Shown: positions 39,080 to 48,823, numbered from the whole stretch's first letter. The stretch is DNA of 62,940 nt, filler included, from a bacterium (GCA_027004335.1; 10 parts of 10 records of this genome joined end to end with filler, not necessarily neighbours in it), one strand, 5' to 3'. Made by a program: numbers and translations. Notes: a model not told the origin generated them from the sequence alone.

Positions 39080-39351
<272 letters not shown>

Positions 39352-39354
39352 AAC

Positions 39355-39390
39355 TTCTTGACAACCGTTATGACAAATGTATAATAACGA
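39355..39390 (+). promoter_or_regulatory. Sigma70 promoter overlapped by a ModE-like box (copy 1)
   Basis: TTGACA-16 nt-TATAAT containing the inverted repeat CGTTAT-N12-ATAACG at 39366-39389. Confidence 0.8.
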
Positions 39391-39402
39391 ATTAACTGTT
39401 GA

Positions 39403-40200
39403 ATGGGAGAAATGATAATACACTACTTTTTGACATTTCTAACAGGTATCTTAGCAGGTACTTTAGGAGGGCTTCTCGGCATTGGTGGAGGAATTATTGT
39501 TATGCCGTACCTTAAATTTATCATCGGCCTCCCAATTATGTATGCAGCTGGGACAACAGTAATTACCGTTTTTTTCACCACATTTGGCGGAACAATTAAG
39601 CATCACCGACTTGGCCACATCCATTTTCGGGCCCTTATTCCCATAATAGCATCAGGGGCAATAATGTCAATTGTATTCTCCCTAATATTTCCACATCTTC
39701 GAGTTGTTAGCCGCTGGATTAATCTTGGAATGGGGATACTATTTCTCATTGTATCGTTAAGAATGATTGCCGATGCAATATGGCTTTCAAATATAATGAG
39801 ATCCCCTCCACAGGACACTTCAGCAAAAAATAAATTATGGCAAAAAATCACAGTTGGTGCAATAGCAGGGGCATTGCCAGGATTGCTTGGTATTGGTAGT
39901 GGTGCAATATTTGTCCCAGTATTTACATTCCTCTTTGGTATGCCGATAAAAGTCGCAATTGGTTCATCACTTGCATGCTTTTCAATAAATGCATTTATCA
40001 GTTCAGCCATGAAAGCTTTCCAGGGATTTGTATACTGGGATATCGCTATCCCTATTGCCATTGGGGCGTTTTTCGGTGCAAATATAGGTGCAAAACTAAA
40101 TAAAATTTTCCCATCTAAAGTATTGCGGTTTTTATTTGGATCTTTATTTTTATATGTTGCTATAAAATTTATATTGTTGTTCTGGGGGGTGAAAATATGA
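39403..40200 (+). CDS. TSUP (TauE/SafE) family membrane transporter
   Basis: Two internal repeats, GGLLGIGGG..P and GLLGIGSG..P; about 8 TM helices. Confidence 0.9.
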   Translation: MGEMIIHYFLTFLTGILAGTLGGLLGIGGGIIVMPYLKFIIGLPIMYAAGTTVITVFFTTFGGTIKHHRLGHIHFRALIPIIASGAIMSIVFSLIFPHLRVVSRWINLGMGILFLIVSLRMIADAIWLSNIMRSPPQDTSAKNKLWQKITVGAIAGALPGLLGIGSGAIFVPVFTFLFGMPIKVAIGSSLACFSINAFISSAMKAFQGFVYWDIAIPIAIGAFFGANIGAKLNKIFPSKVLRFLFGSLFLYVAIKFILLFWGVKI

Positions 40201-40958
40201 CTAATACTCCAAAAATAATTGAACAGGCAAAAAATAGATTAATTGAAATGATCACCAACAAAAGTATTTTTGATGCCAGAGTCTCTGTTCTTGCTCGGGC
40301 ACTAACTCCCGAAGAGGCCATTGGTACCCCGGGGCGACGGGATTTTCCAATAATAATTGGAAAAGAGAAAATGCTTGAAGCAAAAGTTTTAGGTTTTCGG
40401 GGGCAGGCATTTACTGACTCACGAAAAGAATTTATTGGTACTCTGAAAGAAGTTCTTGAAATGCCCTTAAATACAAACAGTAATCGTGCAATATTTGTAG
40501 CAGTTTTTAATGCTCTTATGCGATATTTTGGAAAAGCAAATGGTACAGTCCACTGTAAAAATGAAGAACCTGAAAGATGTGCAGTTGAAATTGCGGATTT
40601 TATACACAACAATTTTCATCCCAAAAAAGTTGGATTAATAGGTTTAAATCCCGCCATTGCTGAGGCTCTTTCGAAGAAGTTTGGCGGTGATAATCTTTTG
40701 ATTACAGATCTTTACATTAAGAATATCGGGAGAAAAAAATTTGGTACAAAAATCTTTGATGGCAATATCATGAATGAAAAACTGATTCAAGCTTCTGATT
40801 TTGTACTAATTACTGGAACAACAATTGTTAATGATACCTTTGATGAAATTATGTCAGCGGTGAAAAAATACAACAAAGAATATACTTTATACGGAGTAAC
40901 CAGTGCAGGTATATGCTCGCTTTTTGATATGCCTAGAATCTGCCCTTATAGTAAATAA
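40197..40958 (+). CDS. DUF364-like Rossmann-fold protein (putative metal chelation)
   Basis: EEAIG.P.R.DFPI..GKE, GQAFTD, HC...PE.C, ITGTTIVN and YGVT..G.....R.C. Confidence 0.75.
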   Translation: MTNTPKIIEQAKNRLIEMITNKSIFDARVSVLARALTPEEAIGTPGRRDFPIIIGKEKMLEAKVLGFRGQAFTDSRKEFIGTLKEVLEMPLNTNSNRAIFVAVFNALMRYFGKANGTVHCKNEEPERCAVEIADFIHNNFHPKKVGLIGLNPAIAEALSKKFGGDNLLITDLYIKNIGRKKFGTKIFDGNIMNEKLIQASDFVLITGTTIVNDTFDEIMSAVKKYNKEYTLYGVTSAGICSLFDMPRICPYSK

Positions 40959-40997
40959 CTCTTTAAAGAAAAAAAGAGTATATTCCACAAATTTAAA

Positions 40998-41033
40998 TTC
41001 TTGACAATCATTATGACAAAAATATAATAACGA
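40998..41033 (+). promoter_or_regulatory. Sigma70 promoter overlapped by a ModE-like box (copy 2)
   Basis: 32 of 36 nt identical to 39355-39390; TTGACA-16 nt-TATAAT; CATTAT-N12-ATAACG. Confidence 0.8.
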
Positions 41034-41035
41034 CT

Positions 41036-41389
41036 ATGAAGATAAAATCAAAGGTGTGGATTGAAAACGAAAAAGGCGAAACAATAATAAGCTACGGTAA
41101 GTATATCTTATTAAAAGAAATTGAAAAAAAAGGCTCAATCTCAGCAGCTGCAAAAAAAATGGGAACCCCCTTTCGTAAGGCCTGGGTTATGGTTAAAACC
41201 ATGAATGAAAGAAGCCTTAAACCTCTAGTTGTTACAAGATCTGGGGGAAAAGATGGAGGAGGAGCTGAATTGACAGAAGAAGGGAAAAAACTTGTCAGGT
41301 TATTTGAGACAATCAACAATAATGTGGAAAATTCTCTCAGGTCATTTGAAAACTTAATAAACATAAAAGAGGAGAAGAAAGATGGTTAA
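41036..41389 (+). CDS. ModE-family winged-helix regulator (DNA-binding domain only)
   Basis: KVWIE, LL..I...GSISAAAKKMG..FRKAW and GGKDGGGAELTEEG; no TOBE domains. Confidence 0.9.
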   Translation: MKIKSKVWIENEKGETIISYGKYILLKEIEKKGSISAAAKKMGTPFRKAWVMVKTMNERSLKPLVVTRSGGKDGGGAELTEEGKKLVRLFETINNNVENSLRSFENLINIKEEKKDG

Positions 41390-43352
41390 GTTATTGCTCT
41401 ACTTTTTTATCTCGGTAACAACATCAACTTCGTCTTCACCTGTAACACACACTGCAGCATATCCGAAACCTACTACAACTACAGGGAAAACTGTTATGAC
41501 AGAAAAGGTAAAATCATTTACTCAAATCCCGACCATCGGTGAAGTCGTAATCACAGGCAAAAGATCTGTTCCCGCGGTCAGGATCCTCATCCCCCGGAAA
41601 AGTATTGAAGAAAACGGCGTAGAAAGCAGCGATAAGATAACAAAGATCACACCTGTTTTAAATGTGGAAGATACTTCAAGGGGTGATAGGTATCTGTATT
41701 TAGCAGGCTTTAATTACAGACAGATTCAGATGTATTTAGATGGGGTCCCTGTTTACATTCCTTACAGCGGAGATATTGGTGCTGATCTCCTGAAACTGGT
41801 AAATATAAAGGAAATAGTTGTGGAACCTGTTCTTCCATCTTTATTTTATGGTCCCAATGCTATGGGAGGAGCAATAAACATTCTCTCCACCACCCCCACC
41901 GGTGGGATACATGGGAAGTTTTCAGCAGAAATTAATCAGGTGAGCAATAAAAATGGCAGGTTCAATATTTCAGCAGGAGAGAATAATTACTATGCAGGTG
42001 CAAGCGGGATGATATGGAATTCACCGGGCTTTCCTCTTTCAAAAAAATTTACCTCCTCTCTCAACGAAAATGGGGAGGTGAGGGAAAACAGCTACACAAA
42101 GGGATACACCTTCTTCGGATATACTGGATATAACAGGAATCAACTAAACTTTTTCACCCTAAGATACTACAAAACCTCAATGGAAAAAGGGGTACCACCA
42201 GAAGTGGGTTCAACAAAACCCAGATACTGGAGATTCACAGATTGGGAAAAAGAATTTTTAAATTTTGTGGGGAGGAAATCTCTGGGAGAAAATAGTTACA
42301 TCAAACTTAACAGTGCATATACAGGGTATTATAATGTTCTTGATTCTTACGATGACAGCACCTATTCAACCCAGACAAAAAGATACGCTTTCCACTCCAC
42401 CTATGATGATTACTCTCTTCTTTCATCCCTCACAGGAGGAATAACAAAGGGGATAATATCCACGGATCTACTTTTCACCTACAGAAAAGATATTCACAGG
42501 GAGCAACCAGACTACAACGAAGAATGGTCAGGATATGGTCAGGAGATATATTCAGCTGGATTAAGATCCACCGCATCGGCAAAAAAGATTATTTTCTCAG
42601 CCGAGGGAAGGTATGACAAACTCGCGGCTTTTAAATACCCCAACAGCGATGCACTTAATTACAGAGCCTCTTTAAGGTACAATTTCAAAAATGGAAACGC
42701 AGGTATTGCAATTGGTTCCACTACAAGATTCCCCACCATGAAGGAAAAATACTCCTATCATCTTGGTAGAAGCATACCCAATCCCAATCTTAAACCTGAA
42801 TCACAGGATGCTATCATACTTAATTTTTCAACTCCGCCTTTTTACGGTATAAAAATTAACGGCTTTGGTTATTATTCAAAACTTAAAAATCTTATAGAAA
42901 GTGTGAAAATTAATTCCTCAACAGATCAGAATCAGAACATAAGCAGGGCTTTTCTTACAGGATTTTATTTGGAGGGCCTCTACCAGAAAAGCGGGATCCT
43001 GCTTAAAGCTGCACTACAGGGAACTTGGACAAAGGACCTTGAACATGACACCACCCTTCCATACAGGCCAAGATGGAGAAGTATACTATCTGCTGGATAT
43101 TCAGGAAAGAAATTTTCCCTACTAATTTCTCTTAATGGTCAGTATATAACCTTCTATGAGGGTAAAGATGTCACAGACCTTCACAAGTTAGGAAGCTGGA
43201 CAACGATTGGCCTACACGGTGATTTCCACATTGACCGTAATATAAAAATTTATACAACGGTTGAAAACCTTTTTGATAAAAACTATGAAACAGATCACGG
43301 ATTTCCTGCTGCAGGAAGAGAGATTTTCGCGGGGATTGTGAGTAGTTTTTAG
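41382..43352 (+). CDS. TonB-dependent outer-membrane receptor
   Basis: TonB-box-like EVVITG, plug LDGVP..SLFYGPNAMGGAINI, NPNLKPE, ENLFDKNY..GR and terminal Phe. Confidence 0.93.
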   Translation: MVKLLLYFFISVTTSTSSSPVTHTAAYPKPTTTTGKTVMTEKVKSFTQIPTIGEVVITGKRSVPAVRILIPRKSIEENGVESSDKITKITPVLNVEDTSRGDRYLYLAGFNYRQIQMYLDGVPVYIPYSGDIGADLLKLVNIKEIVVEPVLPSLFYGPNAMGGAINILSTTPTGGIHGKFSAEINQVSNKNGRFNISAGENNYYAGASGMIWNSPGFPLSKKFTSSLNENGEVRENSYTKGYTFFGYTGYNRNQLNFFTLRYYKTSMEKGVPPEVGSTKPRYWRFTDWEKEFLNFVGRKSLGENSYIKLNSAYTGYYNVLDSYDDSTYSTQTKRYAFHSTYDDYSLLSSLTGGITKGIISTDLLFTYRKDIHREQPDYNEEWSGYGQEIYSAGLRSTASAKKIIFSAEGRYDKLAAFKYPNSDALNYRASLRYNFKNGNAGIAIGSTTRFPTMKEKYSYHLGRSIPNPNLKPESQDAIILNFSTPPFYGIKINGFGYYSKLKNLIESVKINSSTDQNQNISRAFLTGFYLEGLYQKSGILLKAALQGTWTKDLEHDTTLPYRPRWRSILSAGYSGKKFSLLISLNGQYITFYEGKDVTDLHKLGSWTTIGLHGDFHIDRNIKIYTTVENLFDKNYETDHGFPAAGREIFAGIVSSF

Positions 43353-43354
43353 GT

Positions 43355-44587
43355 ATGAGAGAAGAAGTTGCAAAACTTGATGGGGTTTCCCTGTTTCTTG
43401 TCCGAAGAAATGAGGAAATTCTGAAAGATGTGAGTTTTTCACTCTCGGAAGGGGAACTCATTGTAATCAGAGGACCAACAGGAAGTGGAAAATCACTTTT
43501 ATTAAAATCAATTGCGGGGAGCAACCTTCAAGGAATAAAAGTAAGGGGAAAAATTAAAACCATTCATGAAAAAATCAGGGTGCCGCAGGATCCATCTTCG
43601 CTGCTGCTGACCCCTTCCGTAAGAACCTTACTATCGTTTCATGATTTTGAAAAGGCTTCAAGGCTACTGGAATATTTCGGAAAAGAAGAACTGCTCCACA
43701 GGAAAACTTACCATCTATCATATGGAGAAAAGAAAATAATTACCCTTCTCCACGCATTAACTTCCTCATCAAAACTTCTCTTGCTTGATGAACCATTCTC
43801 AGGTCTTGATAGCAGGAGAAGAGAAACTCTAAAATGGATTATTGATGAGGAGAGGAAGAGAGGGAGAAGTTTCATAATTGTTGACCATACTGCAAGCCCT
43901 TTTGAAAATGGTAAAATTCTCTACATAAGTACTGCCGAAAAAAGGATAACACGGCAGAAAAGAAAACATAGAAGAGAACTACCACCTTTAAGAAATTCAA
44001 AAAATGGGAGGGAATTACTTAAAATCAATAAAATAACTGTGAAGGTAGATGGGAAAGAAATTTTAAAAAACCTCTCTTTTACTCTCAATGAGGGGGAGTT
44101 AAAATTTATATCAGGGGAAAATGGAACGGGAAAAACCACTCTGCTCCATGCCATCTCAGGATGGGGGAAAAATGCAGAAGGTGAGATCAATTACAGAGGA
44201 AAAAAGTGGAAGAAAAAAGATCGGAAGAAAAAAACCTTTTTTCTCTCCCAGACACCGGAGAGCAGTTTTTTTTCCCTCAATATGGATTATATGAGCAGAC
44301 GTTCCGGAATCCCGGAGGAAAAAATTGAAAGAAGTAGTCTTGAAAAATTAAAGGGGATCCCCTCAATCTACTGGAGCTATGGAGAGAAGGTAAAATTTAA
44401 TCTACTCTTGGCAGATTCAAGCGAGGCGGAAATAATTATGATCGACGAGACTTTTTCATCTCTTGATTACAAATCCCTTCTTTTTCTCTACCAGAACCTC
44501 AATAGGTGGCTCAACGAAAATAGAGGTATAATAATAACAACTCCGGAAACCGGTACATCCTTTGAGGGAGTAAATCTTGACAGGTAA
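43355..44587 (+). CDS. Tandem-domain ABC ATPase (ECF A-A'-like)
   Basis: Two Walker A (GPTGSGKS, GENGTGKT), signatures LSYGE and WSYGE, Walker B LLLDEP and IMIDET. Confidence 0.85.
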   Translation: MREEVAKLDGVSLFLVRRNEEILKDVSFSLSEGELIVIRGPTGSGKSLLLKSIAGSNLQGIKVRGKIKTIHEKIRVPQDPSSLLLTPSVRTLLSFHDFEKASRLLEYFGKEELLHRKTYHLSYGEKKIITLLHALTSSSKLLLLDEPFSGLDSRRRETLKWIIDEERKRGRSFIIVDHTASPFENGKILYISTAEKRITRQKRKHRRELPPLRNSKNGRELLKINKITVKVDGKEILKNLSFTLNEGELKFISGENGTGKTTLLHAISGWGKNAEGEINYRGKKWKKKDRKKKTFFLSQTPESSFFSLNMDYMSRRSGIPEEKIERSSLEKLKGIPSIYWSYGEKVKFNLLLADSSEAEIIMIDETFSSLDYKSLLFLYQNLNRWLNENRGIIITTPETGTSFEGVNLDR

Positions 44588-45113
44588 AAGAGTAGCTTAC
44601 AGTGCAGTGTTCGGGATACTTATCGGGTTGTGGGAAACCCTTGCGGGGAATTTCTTACATCAACTGAGGGTCCCTTTCACAGGAGAGACCCTATCATTTT
44701 TTGACATTCTTATCTTCGCCTATATTTTTCAGAAAACAAGGGACAGAAATATCATACTCTACTCCGTAGCAGTTGCTATAGCAATAAGGATCACTCTCAT
44801 GGGTACATTTTCTCTTGGTCCCATCATTGGAGTAGCTGCCATATCTCTTCTTTTCTATACAGGGACAATTTTGAAAAAAATCGCATATCTTGCAGGAGGA
44901 ACACTGGCGGGACTCTGGTCCCCCTTTTATTTTGGAATAATAAAAGTAAAACTCCTGGGACCTGAACTTCTCCAATCATATAAATTTTTATTTAAAAAAG
45001 CCGGGATCACCTTCACTCCAGAAGAGTTAATAATCCTTCTAATAATCGTCGGTGGGGTATCAGGTCTACTGGCAGGGATCGCAGGGCAAAAGCTGGGAAG
45101 AGATCTACCATGA
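44577..45113 (+). CDS. Membrane protein, putative ECF-type S component
   Basis: 178 aa with about 5-6 TM helices; W.E...G.FLH.LRVPF.G motif; lies between ATPase and T-like genes. Confidence 0.6.
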   Translation: MTGKRVAYSAVFGILIGLWETLAGNFLHQLRVPFTGETLSFFDILIFAYIFQKTRDRNIILYSVAVAIAIRITLMGTFSLGPIIGVAAISLLFYTGTILKKIAYLAGGTLAGLWSPFYFGIIKVKLLGPELLQSYKFLFKKAGITFTPEELIILLIIVGGVSGLLAGIAGQKLGRDLP

Positions 45114-45634
45114 ACCTGATAATTGGAACATTTTTGATAATAATAAGCATCCTGAAGCTGAATTTAATAAAGGCGGGAGGAGTGGCTTTACTCTCATTGA
45201 TCCTTCTCTTTCCTCAGACAAAGATAAAAAAATTTGTATCAATTTTTGTAATACTAACTCTTATCCCACCATTTCTCGCGCCTGAAAAATTCAATCTTCT
45301 CATGCTGAATTCCCTTAAGATTACCATCAGATTTTCAGGTTTCTTTTTAATCATACTCTGGATAAATAAAAAATTCTCGGAGATAGACATCATCTCCTTC
45401 CCTCTACCTACATCAATAACTGCTCCTGTAACTCTTGCACTGAATATCCTGCCCCAGATGAATGAATTCTTCTCAGTCTCAACAAAGCAGTTAAGAAAAA
45501 GAAGGGGCTGGATAAGGGACCTGCCAGAATATGTTAAATTTTTGTTAGCCTATGTTACAAATTTTGCAGAAGAACTTGGAAAAGAGGTAGAAATCACCCT
45601 ATCTTTAATTGAAAATGATAAAAGAAATTACTGA
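45110..45634 (+). CDS. Membrane protein, putative ECF T-component-like
   Basis: N-terminal TMs followed by an LALNILP amphipathic region and a basic helix; operon context. Confidence 0.5.
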   Translation: MNLIIGTFLIIISILKLNLIKAGGVALLSLILLFPQTKIKKFVSIFVILTLIPPFLAPEKFNLLMLNSLKITIRFSGFFLIILWINKKFSEIDIISFPLPTSITAPVTLALNILPQMNEFFSVSTKQLRKRRGWIRDLPEYVKFLLAYVTNFAEELGKEVEITLSLIENDKRNY

Positions 45635-46088
45635 AGGAAAAATTACTTACATCATGGGACCGCTGAATTCCGGGAAGACCACTTACCTGAAAAGAAAAAT
45701 AGCTGAGAATCCAGACAACTATATAGGTTTTCTATCTCTTCCCATATACTTCTATCATGGATTAAAAAATTACTATCTTAAAGGCATAAATATCCCTATA
45801 GAAGGCCTTCTTACAGCTCCAGATCCTCTCTTATTACATCCACCCCTCTTTTACTGGCGAAAAAGATTTTTCTCACAGTTTATGTTTGATACTGTAACTG
45901 AATTTGTTATTGAAGATTCTGAAATTTCAACAAATAATAAAATATTTGTTATTGACGAGGTAGGCCCTCTGGAAAAAACTGGAAAAGGATGGAACAAACT
46001 AATTGACTTTCTTGTCAAAAATAATGTAAAATTAATTATGGTGGTGAGGAGAAAAGAGAGCAGAAAAAAACTTGAAAATAAATTTTAA
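45615..46088 (+). CDS. P-loop nucleoside triphosphatase (NTPase_1/THEP1/DUF2478-like)
   Basis: GPLNSGKTT, GFLS, FVIDEVGPLE..GKGW and MVVR. Confidence 0.8.
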   Translation: MIKEITEGKITYIMGPLNSGKTTYLKRKIAENPDNYIGFLSLPIYFYHGLKNYYLKGINIPIEGLLTAPDPLLLHPPLFYWRKRFFSQFMFDTVTEFVIEDSEISTNNKIFVIDEVGPLEKTGKGWNKLIDFLVKNNVKLIMVVRRKESRKKLENKF

Positions 46089-46100
46089 ATGTGTTATATT
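46072..46100 (+). promoter_or_regulatory. Sigma70 promoter with extended -10
   Basis: TTGAAA-17 nt-TATATT with TG at 46092-46093. Confidence 0.65.
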
Positions 46101-46106
46101 AACTTT

Positions 46107-46184
46107 AGAATTTAATACGCTGTTTTACTTATACCCCTCCCCCCTCCCCCGGCGGGAAAGCGTCACGCTTTCCTGCCGTTTTTT
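46107..46184 (+). ncRNA. Candidate small RNA (about 78 nt)
   Basis: Bounded by a promoter and an intrinsic terminator; contains no ATG; has a C-rich tract. Confidence 0.5.
46150..46184 (+). terminator. Intrinsic terminator
   Basis: 13-bp stem CGGCGGGAAAGCG / CGCTTTCCTGCCG (one G-U), loop TCA, then T6. Confidence 0.9.
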
Positions 46185-46300
46185 AACAAGAGGCTAATTC
46201 NNNNNNNNNNNNNNNNNNNNNNNNNNNNNNNNNNNNNNNNNNNNTTAATTAATTAANNNNNNNNNNNNNNNNNNNNNNNNNNNNNNNNNNNNNNNNNNNN

Positions 46301-47653
46301 TTAGAAAAATTAAAAGAAATAGTGGGGAAAAATTTTCCCTCTGCTTCTGTTGAGGATCTCTATCTTTACGGTAGAGATGGTGGTTCCACCCCACCCCGAG
46401 AGGTTGATTTTGTAGTTGCTCCCGGTAGCGTGGAAGATGTACAGCAGATAGTTAAGTTTGCCTATAATGAAGGGATCCCCATTACTCCATCCGGGGCTGG
46501 ATTAACTCTCAATGGTCTTACCCTTCCTCTTAAGGGGGGGATTGTACTTGATATGAGGAGGATGAACAGGATCATTGAAGTAAATAAGTTGGCAAGATAT
46601 GTGGTGGTTGAATCTGGTGTTACCCAGGGGTTTCTCCTCTCCTATCTCAAAGAAAACTATCCTGAGCTGCAACATTCACTTCCTGAGGCACCCCCCGCTG
46701 CTACAGTGGTTGGGAATCTTTTAATAAAGGGTCACGGCACCCAGGCTTTTTATGGAGAAAATTCCGATATGATAAATGGTCTTGAAGTGATCCTTCCTGA
46801 TGGAGAAATAGTTTATACAGGCTCCAGATCAATCTCAGACTACTGGTTTACCAAGGGACCCCTCCCTGAGCTAACAGGATTGTTTATCTCCTGGTTTGGG
46901 ACCACAGGCATTGTCACAAAGGCTTCTCTCAGACTCTTTCCAAGAACCAGGTTTAAAGATGCGGTACTTTTTGTAACAGATGACGCTGAGCTTCTTCCAC
47001 CTCTAATATATGAGATCACATCTACAAGACTGTTTGACAACATTGGAATGCTTGGTCAGGATCTCCCTGAATATTTAAAGGGACATAAATTTGTAGCTGT
47101 TATGATCTCAGGGAATTATGAGGAAGAGATAGAACTTAAAAAAAGAATTATCTCCTCTGTGGAAGAAAAAGTTGATGGAGTGACTCTTATCCAGCAGATA
47201 CCTCCAAATATTGCTAAGAGATTTATGGAGGAACCTCCCTTTGCAGCAGTTGCCGCTGATTTTAGAAAGGGGGGTGGATTCCAGTACTGTGGTTCCATGA
47301 TACCACTTGAAAAAGTGCCAGAGGCGTGGGTTGAAGGGGAGAAGATCGCCCACAAATATAATTTTTATTTTTCATGTGCCAACCAGGTACTTGCCTATGG
47401 TCATGAAGTTATGTTTGGATTCAACTACTCCTTTAACAGGGCGGACAAAGATGAAATAGAGAGAGTAAGAAAAGCAATGAAGGAAACCAATGAACTTGTT
47501 GTTAAATTGGGGGGGATCCCATGGAAGGCTGATACTTACGGACAGAAACTCATCCTTGATAAGATGTACCCGGGGACAAAAAAGCTGATTGAGAAGATCA
47601 AAAAACTGCTTGATCCTGAGGGAATAATGAATCCCGGCAACTGGGAGAGTTAA
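46301..47653 (+). CDS. FAD-binding oxidoreductase, GlcD-like (5' truncated)
   Basis: VVAPGSVEDVQ, GGIVLDMRRMN, GLEVILPDG, GTTGIVTK and LDPEGIMNPG. Confidence 0.88.
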   Translation, partial: LEKLKEIVGKNFPSASVEDLYLYGRDGGSTPPREVDFVVAPGSVEDVQQIVKFAYNEGIPITPSGAGLTLNGLTLPLKGGIVLDMRRMNRIIEVNKLARYVVVESGVTQGFLLSYLKENYPELQHSLPEAPPAATVVGNLLIKGHGTQAFYGENSDMINGLEVILPDGEIVYTGSRSISDYWFTKGPLPELTGLFISWFGTTGIVTKASLRLFPRTRFKDAVLFVTDDAELLPPLIYEITSTRLFDNIGMLGQDLPEYLKGHKFVAVMISGNYEEEIELKKRIISSVEEKVDGVTLIQQIPPNIAKRFMEEPPFAAVAADFRKGGGFQYCGSMIPLEKVPEAWVEGEKIAHKYNFYFSCANQVLAYGHEVMFGFNYSFNRADKDEIERVRKAMKETNELVVKLGGIPWKADTYGQKLILDKMYPGTKKLIEKIKKLLDPEGIMNPGNWES

Positions 47654-47656
47654 TAT

Positions 47657-48823
47657 ATGGGCCTTGATGAATACAGAGAGATAATTCATAGATGTTTTCG
47701 TTGTGGTTTCTGCAAATTAACAACTGATTACAACTGGAGAGGCTTTAACTGTCCGGAGTATAATAAATTCAGACTTGAGAGTTACTCTCCAGGTGGTATG
47801 CTCTGGCTCTCCTATGCTGCTTTTGTAACTGGAGAATTAAAACCAGACAACCATCTTGCTGAGATTCTGTATTCCTGCTCCATGTGCAAAAACTGCGCCC
47901 AGAGTTGTAAATTTAAATTTGGTGATATGGTAACTGAGATGCTCCGAAAAACAAGAGAGGAAATTGTAGAAAAACACCCTGAATTGGTTCCTGCGGTGGT
48001 TCAAAAATTTTTAAAGAATGTTTATAGATATGGAAATCCATATGGTGTAAATTCCTCCGAATTTAAAAGCATAGAAAAGATTCCTGGTGTTGAAAGATAC
48101 AGTAATCAGGAGTACCTCCTCTATCTCTCCCCCATCTCCTACATTGAACCTTCTGCCTATGAATCTGCCCATTCTCTTGCTGAGGTTTTAGTGAAGCTAA
48201 AAATCTCCTTTGGAATTATAGGACCTGATGAGATCTGTGACGGGAATGAGGTTCTGATGTTAGGTGATTCAGCCCTTTTTGATTATGTGAAGGAGAAAAA
48301 TCTTGAACAATTCAAAAAAATGAATGTTAAAAAAATTATCACATTCTCCCCCCACAGCTACAATGCCATGAAAAACTACTATTCTATGGATGAAATAGAA
48401 GTATTTCATTATACTCAGATTATTTATGACTTTCTTAACAAAGGTAAAATTAAATTTAACAGGGGACTTAATAAAAGGATCACCTACCATGATCCCTGTT
48501 TTTTAGGAAGATACAACGGTATTTATGAAGAACCAAGGGAGATTTTAAGGTCAATTCCCGGTATAGATTTTGTTGAAATGCCGAGAAACAGAGAAAAGGC
48601 TTTTTGCTGTGGTGGTGGAGGTGGTAATTTTTATACTGATATGATTGGCCCTGGTGAAAATGCACCATCCAGAGTTAGAGTTAGAGAAGCTGAGGAAACC
48701 GGTGCGGAAATTATTGCTGTTGCATGTCCTGTATGTAAGTTAATGCTGGAAAACGGGGCGCAGGGAGAAGATTCAAAATTAGAAATTAAAGATATATCAG
48801 CTATCCTTCTTGAACTCCTTTGA
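47657..48823 (+). CDS. Fe-S oxidoreductase with CCG domain (GlpC/HdrD-like)
   Basis: CFRCGFC, CSMCKNC...C, YHDPCFLGR, CCGGGGG and ACPVC. Confidence 0.9.
   Translation: MGLDEYREIIHRCFRCGFCKLTTDYNWRGFNCPEYNKFRLESYSPGGMLWLSYAAFVTGELKPDNHLAEILYSCSMCKNCAQSCKFKFGDMVTEMLRKTREEIVEKHPELVPAVVQKFLKNVYRYGNPYGVNSSEFKSIEKIPGVERYSNQEYLLYLSPISYIEPSAYESAHSLAEVLVKLKISFGIIGPDEICDGNEVLMLGDSALFDYVKEKNLEQFKKMNVKKIITFSPHSYNAMKNYYSMDEIEVFHYTQIIYDFLNKGKIKFNRGLNKRITYHDPCFLGRYNGIYEEPREILRSIPGIDFVEMPRNREKAFCCGGGGGNFYTDMIGPGENAPSRVRVREAEETGAEIIAVACPVCKLMLENGAQGEDSKLEIKDISAILLELL

Follow-up and report, generated by a model that had tools for sequence, protein, structure and literature searches.

The 62,940-nucleotide stretch of bacterial DNA analysed here (GCA_027004335.1, referred to below as the window) consists of contigs of a metagenome-assembled genome (MAG) that are chained by N spacers (44 N, 12 bases and 44 N), with nine spacer pairs across positions 7353-60632. 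One of these contigs, G000:C209 (7.1 kb, window positions 39080-46200), carries two neighbouring operons that are preceded by nearly the same promoter and operator and that together would encode an uptake system spanning two membranes (Table 1). The system combines a ModE-type regulator, a TonB-dependent outer-membrane receptor (TBDR), the parts of a transporter of the energy-coupling factor (ECF) type and a THEP1-like NTPase. We consider that it is controlled through ModE-type boxes and that it most likely carries a molybdenum or tungsten (Mo/W) pterin cofactor in preformed state, similar to Mo-molybdopterin (Mo-MPT), which would make it a salvage route, a reading to which we give about an even chance.

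Table 1. Features of contig G000:C209, with positions counted in the window.
Feature	Position	Strand	Basis or remark
3′ end of a tgt-like gene			Read from translation
Promoter 1, TTGACA-16-TATAAT (12/12)	39358..39390	+	ModE-type box CGTTAT-N12-ATAACG at 39366-39389
TauE/SafE-family anion permease, first gene of upstream operon	39403..40200	+	PF01925, E 3.7e-47
DUF364 protein, Rossmann-like part matched	40197..40958	+	PF04016, 39.3 bits (cut-off 23)
Promoter 2 (12/12)	41001..41033	+	Box CATTAT-N12-ATAACG at 41009-41032
ModE N-terminal winged helix-turn-helix (wHTH) regulator, 117 aa	41036..41389	+	TIGR00637, E 1.7e-25
TonB-dependent outer-membrane receptor, 656 aa	41382..43352	+	Plug domain; full-length orthologue matches
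Tandem ABC ATPase, A-A′ in one 410-aa chain	43355..44587	+	ABC_tran twice; LSYGE, WSYGE
S-component-like membrane protein, 178 aa	44577..45113	+	Fused-family HMM, E 1.8e-25; homologue model fold
T-component-like membrane protein (memB), 174 aa, C-terminal helical hairpin	45110..45634	+	Weak fold match; predicted docking
THEP1-like P-loop NTPase, 159 aa	45609..46088	+	PF03266; fused-family C-terminal domain, E 7.1e-16
Intrinsic terminator with a T run and a 13-bp stem that has 9 GC pairs	46150..46178	+	Closes operon

All six genes that the initial annotation had placed at 41036-46088 are present as open reading frames (ORFs) on the + strand, and they are as tightly coupled as it had described, the successive junctions, from 5′ to 3′, being an 8-nt overlap, a 2-nt gap and then overlaps of 11, 4 and 26 nt. 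The six-gene operon stands as annotated, but the unit is larger, with the TauE-DUF364 operon at 39403-40958 in the same regulon. No binding-protein gene was found from the promoter at 41001 to the terminator at 46150, as had been noted for the operon, nor after the homologous genes in the related genome G001; no Rfam family matched the contig at E ≤ 1, so that there is no match to a molybdenum cofactor (Moco) riboswitch. Since the window is made of separate contigs joined by spacers, neighbourhood arguments across the spacers are invalid, and the FAD-oxidase and CCG genes at 46322-48823, which lie beyond a spacer, are unlinked to the operon, as are all genes past 46300. The genome of the window (G000) is 80% complete, and G001, its one family-level relative, is 97% complete. 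Among the 40 nearest genomes only one belongs to the family of the window organism and the others are related at the domain level only, and the MAG thus appears to represent a very sparsely sampled deep lineage. This lineage has a GC content of 38%, is diderm as judged by its TBDR and possesses a tungsten-type AFOR.

The ABC protein is indeed a double ATPase with the deviant signatures first reported for it. PF00005 (ABC_tran) matches two separate parts of it, the Walker A and Walker B motifs can both be found, and LSYGE and WSYGE can be read in the translation, with invariant L121, S122 and G124, and S341 and G343. The two ABC ATPase domains (A and A′) that an ECF transporter requires are both found, and the nearest named relatives (about 25% identity) are labelled ECF ATPase or ModF-like. 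Neither of the two small membrane proteins matches a Pfam (E ≤ 0.01) or NCBIfam family, and no match to Trep_Strep/YkoE PF09605 was obtained for the S-like protein in that Pfam search. Its motif W.E...G.FLH.LRVPF, pointed out in the initial annotation, is real, and the E, G, H and P residues are invariant across the wider family. A comparison of the membrane proteins with ECF S and T structures, which had been suggested at the outset, gave a divided result: Foldseek returned no PDB match for either the model of memB or that of P0006, a homologue of the S-like protein, while an exhaustive structural search placed that of P0006 among ECF components and gave that of memB no more than a weak match to CbiQ. 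The two-domain AlphaFold model of P0006 (79-row alignment, pLDDT 88.1, pTM 0.86) found the ECF S component 5edl_A at Z 15.0 (rmsd 3.1, 163 residues), and 14 of the 15 top rows were ECF components, namely 13 S components and EcfT 5d3m_D (Z 7.9, rank 13). RibU, BioY, PanT, FolT, ThiT, NikM, CbiM and BtuM came at Z 7-10.7 (BtuM 8ovv_A at Z 7.0), the first unrelated rows appeared near Z 7, and CbiQ 5x41_Q was lower (Z 5.9). The six-helix S-component fold is well supported for the family by this homologue model, and the window protein is linked to the family by its HMM match (Table 1).

The best structural match, 5edl, and the ESM features, in which the S-like protein is nearest to Trep_Strep PF09605 clusters (score 0.92), could also suit an ECF transporter for an unrelated vitamin that merely lies near molybdenum genes, either a thiamine precursor, as for YkoE, or cobalamin behind a BtuB-like receptor, BtuB being the best NCBIfam model of the receptor. 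We regard this as very improbable, since all such matches fall far below the family cut-offs, the contig holds no Rfam riboswitch at the threshold given above, the family is absent from every genome lacking enzymes of the xanthine dehydrogenase (XDH) family in one of the two samples presented below, and the links to the ModE box, ModE-N, MobA, XdhC and XDH all point elsewhere.

The second membrane protein, memB, is a putative T component, a reading supported weakly by its fold and more strongly by its predicted docking. When it was modelled with the ABC protein, the predicted complex reached an ipSAE of 0.69 (0.70, 0.67 and 0.69 in separate runs), against 0.00 for the best of three controls, with a partner pLDDT of 59-60 and at least 85% of the contacts shared between runs. 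The predicted interface joins the two C-terminal helices of memB (residues 104-167) to equivalent regions of both ABC domains (54-126 and 268-338). Such a docking mark is reached by 116 of 157 solved complexes and by 2 of 215 mismatched pairs, which is a rough guide since the alignments used here were our own, and the result may reflect likeness to the ECF complexes that have been solved rather than binding. The protein also holds an R-G turn (RKRRG, residues 129-133). At these strengths, the two-membrane route from a TBDR to an ECF module that the initial annotation had proposed is upheld. The last gene had been described as a THEP1/DUF2478-like NTPase; the first half of this description stands, with NTPase_1 (PF03266) at 31.8 bits (cut-off 23.9), a Walker A motif GPLNSGKT and a Walker B motif VIDEVG, whereas DUF2478 left the window protein unmatched and was matched by fused relatives only.

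These fused relatives were found through a profile search of 1.84 billion representatives, which returned 324 relatives of the S-like protein forming an unnamed family. Among the relatives listed, the commonest architecture is an S-T-NTPase fusion of about 570 aa, ending in an NTPase_1/DUF2478 part (55 of the 149 listed proteins measure 541-640 aa), and the other architectures are two-domain proteins of about 400 aa, single-domain proteins of about 200 aa, NTPase-S fusions and one fusion of a MobA-like nucleotidyl transferase to S (P0107). The order of the window genes, S, T-like and NTPase, is the domain order of the fusion. Against PDB sequences, the profile of the fused family matched in the NTPase part only (2i3b, E 2.4e-18; 1ye8, E 2.8e-15) and nowhere in the membrane part. 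When each species was scanned through a single genome, the family was confirmed in 526 of the 600 stretches that matched, and the best 80 loci were examined by calling and clustering their ORFs and annotating the cluster representatives; when contigs were first scanned with the S subfamily to which the window protein belongs, not one of 46 stretches was confirmed, and a word-based search with memB matched memB alone. The best 80 loci are labelled Acidobacteriota, Neomarinimicrobiota, Elusimicrobia, Lentisphaeria, Bacteroidota, Ignavibacteriota, Gemmatimonadota, KSB1 and others; locus L071 belongs to a cultured carrier, Maribellus sp. CM-23.

As the initial annotation had anticipated for a genuine system, the gene set is conserved elsewhere, the family recurring beside TBDR and ModE-N genes and, by fusion, with the NTPase. 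Operons with ModE-N, TBDR, DUF364 and the fusion occur in L045, L060, L068 and L081; ModE-N, DUF364 and the fusion are found in L025, and ModE-N, TBDR and the fusion in L075. The TBDR and the fusion stand together in L030, L066, L070 and L079, and in L021 with a methyltransferase gene between them, while DUF364 and the fusion do so in L052, L064, L073, L077 and L087, and in L022 with two reverse-strand ORFs between them. XDH-family enzymes and molybdopterin oxidoreductases with NrfD are also encoded nearby, as are XdhC (L006) and MobA. In L039 (6897-9704) a single 935-aa protein joins MobA, S, T and NTPase, next to a molybdopterin oxidoreductase operon, and its genome, G061, shows no match to MoaA, MoaC or MoeA. 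An ABC ATPase like that of the window was found only in its own lineage (L007; P0157, P0158). The conserved core is S-T-NTPase, usually fused, and the ABC ATPase is a rare addition of the window lineage. In L043 and L058, ABC genes do occur close to the fusion, but they adjoin MlaE permease genes and so belong to an Mla lipid-transport operon, and they were set aside as partners.

Since most members have the NTPase and the membrane part in one protein, and nearly all loci are without an adjacent ABC ATPase, the family might not import anything, and could instead be a membrane-anchored machine for cofactor maturation or delivery, in which the NTPase would work with XdhC or MobA in the manner of MobB and the S- and T-like domains would serve as an anchor or as a route to exported enzymes. 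The existence of MobA fusions agrees with this, as does the presence of XDH-family enzymes in all 10 carriers of one phylum sample (see below). We nevertheless find such a machine quite improbable, given that the S-component fold is a substrate-capture fold, that an orthologous TBDR stands repeatedly in the same operon, that the window has a full A-A′/T/S set which is predicted to assemble, and that the family is enriched specifically where the cofactor pathway is missing.

The regulator of the window was first annotated as a sensor-less ModE wHTH, and this description was borne out. TIGR00637 (ModE_repress) matches residues 23-114 at 89 bits, under the curated cut-off of 98.5, and the Mop/TOBE part, which in a complete ModE is a C-terminal di-Mop molybdate sensor, has no Pfam or NCBIfam match in the protein. 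It clusters with the ModE-N genes of seven related loci and matches theirs at about 1e-17. Elsewhere in G000 (C185, L091 1-2678), the genes wtpA, wtpB and wtpC are preceded by an ORF, truncated at the edge of the contig, that has a Mop (molybdenum-pterin binding) domain. The window organism has either distinct HTH and Mop proteins in place of a single ModE or a second ModE of full length. In L066 (5545-5982; labelled Elusimicrobia), a regulator with a NikR C-terminal domain lies upstream of the receptor-fusion pair, where ModE-N stands elsewhere.

The contig holds only two perfect sigma-70 consensus sites, each of which precedes one of the two operons, and the two promoter/operator regions are near-identical over 33 bases (2 matches, and 0 in 100 shuffles). 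As judged from sequence, each promoter carries a palindromic ModE-type operator, the second box differing from CGTTAT-N12-ATAACG by one mismatch, and the near-identity of the two regions places the TauE-DUF364 pair and the six-gene operon in one ModE-type regulon. The same box architecture, CGTTATATTGTCGCCTACATAACG, is found about 20 bases upstream of modA in Escherichia coli K-12, a site that we take to be the ModE operator. Of eight related loci with ModE-N, five have GTTAT-N11/12-ATAAC immediately upstream of their receptor gene, namely L075 and L026 and, with two copies each, L045, L060 and L068. A third site resembling the operator, in G000:C241, was set aside as a probable chance occurrence, with three mismatches and a position inside an ORF near the contig end.

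The TBDR of the initial annotation was likewise recovered. Its Plug domain (PF07715) scores 40.9 bits, and residues 65-649 align with the BtuB model at 72.9 bits, a score well below the cut-off of that model. The window protein does not pass the Pfam barrel model, and its orthologues carry both PF00593 and PF07715; full-length matches (E 1e-53 to 1e-60) link it to the receptors of the L081, L060, L045 and L075 operons. From these comparisons, the window protein is predicted to have the plug and 22-strand barrel of a TonB-dependent receptor. It is far from solved receptors, the best PDB match being the pesticin receptor (E 2.7e-5, plug only). In the window DUF364 protein, PF04016 covers residues 141-237, and the N-terminal DUF4213 domain, matched in the L045 orthologue, is unmatched; the protein matches the HMM of the DUF364 genes that adjoin the fused family (E 9.8e-9) and has no PDB sequence match at E ≤ 0.01. 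In two loci a gene with a S-adenosylmethionine (SAM)-methyltransferase fold lies between the receptor and the fusion (L006:7462-8055, TehB/TPMT-like, and L021:7099-8007); it takes the place of DUF364, which is also Rossmann/SAM-like, and a SAM-dependent step is thereby hinted at. TauE, which was not seen in the 80 related loci, could possibly be a chelator exporter or an oxyanion permease.

Several of these observations would also suit a different cargo. The same two-membrane importer of the ECF type could carry a metal, either trace molybdate or tungstate or a Mo/W-metallophore complex, and DUF364 and the NTPase would then release the metal or pass it to MoeA. The box matching that of E. coli modA is what such an importer would be expected to have, and a co-regulated TauE permease could export the chelator. 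SAM-derivative chemistry is seen in metallophore synthesis. Both G000 and G001 have the de novo pathway together with Mo/W enzymes (MoaC, MoeA, a DMSO-reductase-family enzyme and a tungsten-type AFOR, with WtpABC), so that a metal is what they need. As regards DUF364, one enzyme of the family acts on a SAM derivative (PMC12930334), another report places a DUF364 gene in a modABC operon, cofit with nifH (bioRxiv 10.1101/2024.03.05.583561), and the DUF364 structure paper (PMC2954201) mentions neighbouring Mo/W/V transporters and also predicts pterin- or flavin-like ligands.

When we searched 50 carrier genomes for the Moco biosynthetic pathway, 20 were without a match to MoaC, 28 without the MoaA C-terminal domain and 21 without MoeA_N, and the control genomes behaved as expected in every search. 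The MoaE search looked insensitive, with matches in 14 of the 50 and many genomes with MoaC and MoeA unmatched, and was not used. At least one XDH-family enzyme (PF02738) is present in 45 of the 50. Nineteen carriers (G049-G056, G058, G061, G062, G065, G067, G072, G074, G078, G080, G083 and G087) are without MoaA, MoaC and MoeA, and all 19 hold between one and four full-length XDH-family Mo subunits. XdhC and MobA-like transferases were each found in 5 of 5 of these pathway-less genomes tested, often beside the XDH genes, and some keep the set of ModE-N, TBDR, DUF364 and fusion (L025, L026, L064). The 19 look like molybdenum-cofactor auxotrophs: with molybdoenzymes, XdhC and MobA but no MoaA, MoaC or MoeA, molybdate would be unusable to them and the finished cofactor must be obtained. 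Their loci are labelled KSB1, Acidobacteria, Lentisphaeria, Neomarinimicrobiota, Elusimicrobia, Ignavibacteriota/-ae, Bacteroidota, Gemmatimonadaceae and unclassified bacteria.

Two phyletic tests were made on evenly drawn samples of 121 genomes each, one from the phylum of G053 (thresholds 1e-10 for the fusion, 1e-10 for MoaC and 1e-30 for XDH) and one from the class of G061 (1e-20, 1e-10 and 1e-60, respectively). In the phylum of G053, the family is carried by 7 of 8 genomes with the enzyme and without MoaC, by 3 of 12 with both and by 0 of 101 without the enzyme (Fisher p = 1.5e-9 for family against enzyme, and p = 0.020 for family against MoaC absence among the enzyme-positive genomes, with no correction for kinship). 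The class of G061 gave 12 of 20, 3 of 23 and 4 of 78 (p = 3.4e-5 and p = 0.0032, likewise uncorrected). In 16 of 121 and 7 of 121 genomes, respectively, the match to the fusion profile is confined to its C-terminal part and comes from stand-alone THEP1-like NTPases, and these genomes were dropped from the carrier counts; some of them have the enzyme and are without MoaC (G218, G234, G266), and more divergent membrane partners may thus have been missed at these thresholds. The S-T-NTPase family is a feature that tracks bacteria with molybdoenzymes but no pathway, and the counts are strong leads, not proof, because kin are not independent and the completeness of the MAGs is not given.

The concentration of the family in bacteria that have molybdoenzymes, XdhC and MobA-like transferases but are without MoaA, MoaC and MoeA leads us to infer that the cargo is a Mo/W pterin cofactor. 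The link to molybdenum in the initial annotation is supported by the ModE-type box, the conserved neighbours and the phyletic patterns, and of the three cargoes it had offered (a Mo/W chelate, a pterin cofactor or another metallo-cofactor) the comparative data favour the second for the family. A metal would be unusable in the 19 of 50 carriers without MoeA, MoaA and MoaC, some of which keep the full set; MobA, found in fusions, and XdhC, found among the neighbours, both handle the finished cofactor and not the metal; and WtpABC is already in G000. Overall we hold a metal cargo to be unlikely, although in the window lineage in particular a metal, free or chelated, is a serious rival. Under uptake of the preformed cofactor, the TBDR would bring it into the periplasm, where the S protein would capture it at the inner membrane with no binding protein, and a group-I ECF-type A-A′/T module, with the C-terminal hairpin of the T-like protein docked on the tandem ABC ATPase, would drive it inward. 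In the cytoplasm, the THEP1-like NTPase and DUF364 may receive or process the cargo for MobA, XdhC and the enzymes. The window organism is itself able to produce the cofactor, and would resort to salvage facultatively, under repression via the ModE box.

A number of observations weigh against salvage of the cofactor. Classically, what a ModE box controls is the uptake of molybdate rather than that of a cofactor, and G000 is already equipped with WtpABC. No XDH-family enzyme was found in G000 or G001, and since both also have MoaC and MoeA, the salvage signal is not applicable to the lineage of the window. The subfamily of the S-like protein is a distant one, and a search of 5.8 billion clustered proteins yielded just 4 close homologues. 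For memB the fold match is weak: folded alone (pLDDT 76) it returned mainly generic helical hairpins, CbiQ 5x41_Q being the sole whole-length row (Z 5.8, 159 aa, rank 45), and its sequence link to the middle domain of the fusion is weak though collinear (hhalign E 0.13; HMM E 0.0096, three targets). Of the 65 loci with a called fusion, no more than 22 have a Mo-linked neighbour within three genes (TBDR 11, DUF364 11, ModE-N 7). In the phyletic tests, 4 of the 78 XDH-negative genomes in the class of G061 are carriers, and 8 of 20 and 1 of 8 pathway-less XDH-positive genomes, in the class of G061 and the phylum of G053, respectively, showed no membrane part; moreover, the samples are MAGs of unstated completeness, their members are not independent by kinship, and the thresholds differ between the tests.

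Comparison with known systems places the candidate closest to the group-I (dedicated) ECF transporters, especially those of the YkoEDC type, in which the S component is YkoE, the tandem A-A′ ATPase is YkoD and the T component is YkoC. The window system is similar in its S fold, its one-chain tandem ABC protein, its small T-like partner predicted to sit on both nucleotide-binding domains and the lack of a binding protein. It differs in that its membrane proteins belong to no named S or T family, the T-like protein being short and weakly matched in fold, in that it stands behind a TBDR in a diderm, and in its additional THEP1-like NTPase; most relatives carry this NTPase as a fusion to S-T and have no ABC ATPase nearby. 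A diderm pairing of a receptor with an S-fold inner-membrane protein, lacking the classical ECF module, is also known from BtuB and BtuM, a TBDR and a solitary S-component-like cobalamin transporter (PMC6072759); the present system would differ from it in cargo, has a ModE box instead of a B12 riboswitch, and adds a T-like domain and the NTPase. With ModE-ModABC and WtpABC it shares the ModE-type wHTH and the operator architecture, but the regulator is without a Mop sensor and the transporter is of the ECF type with no ModA or WtpA. The C-terminal domain of the fused family resembles THEP1/NTPCR (1ye8, 2i3b) and DUF2478; unlike THEP1/NTPCR, the NTPase of this family is tied to a membrane S/T module by fusion or translational coupling, and we found no such S/T-linked role for THEP1 NTPases in print.

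The initial annotation had not recognised a described system, and our literature search likewise found no account of such an uptake system, subscription journals being incompletely covered. In the searchable literature no bacterial Moco transporter is described, and the reports of Moco uptake concern nematodes or unrelated work; in the literature found, nematodes take Moco from their food by a carrier that is unknown. The molybdenum cofactor is usually treated as too unstable to share. A bolder proposal, which we rate somewhat below even, is that the S-T-NTPase family, with the receptor and DUF364, is the long-missing prokaryotic importer of preformed Moco, that whole clades are auxotrophs fed by other microbes, and that most members are driven or gated by the THEP1-like NTPase and not by an ABC ATPase. 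If the family does import Moco, it would possibly be the first bacterial route of cofactor salvage, and both the cargo and the outer-membrane partner would be new for the ECF scaffold, which in most members would also be paired with an NTPase other than an ABC protein; the THEP1-like NTPase would then be a new kind of energising module for such a scaffold. Neomarinimicrobiota, Lentisphaeria, Elusimicrobia and some Ignavibacteria loci would then be examples of cofactor-auxotroph clades, and biosynthesis genes would no longer suffice to tell whether an organism uses molybdoenzymes. Even if the cargo were a metal, the system would represent a fourth, structurally unrelated route of Mo/W uptake beside Mod, Wtp and Tup. 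Should the cofactor be the cargo, it would be a traded 'vitamin' in microbial communities, and several abundant uncultured lineages would gain a defined growth requirement, which may help in bringing them into culture.

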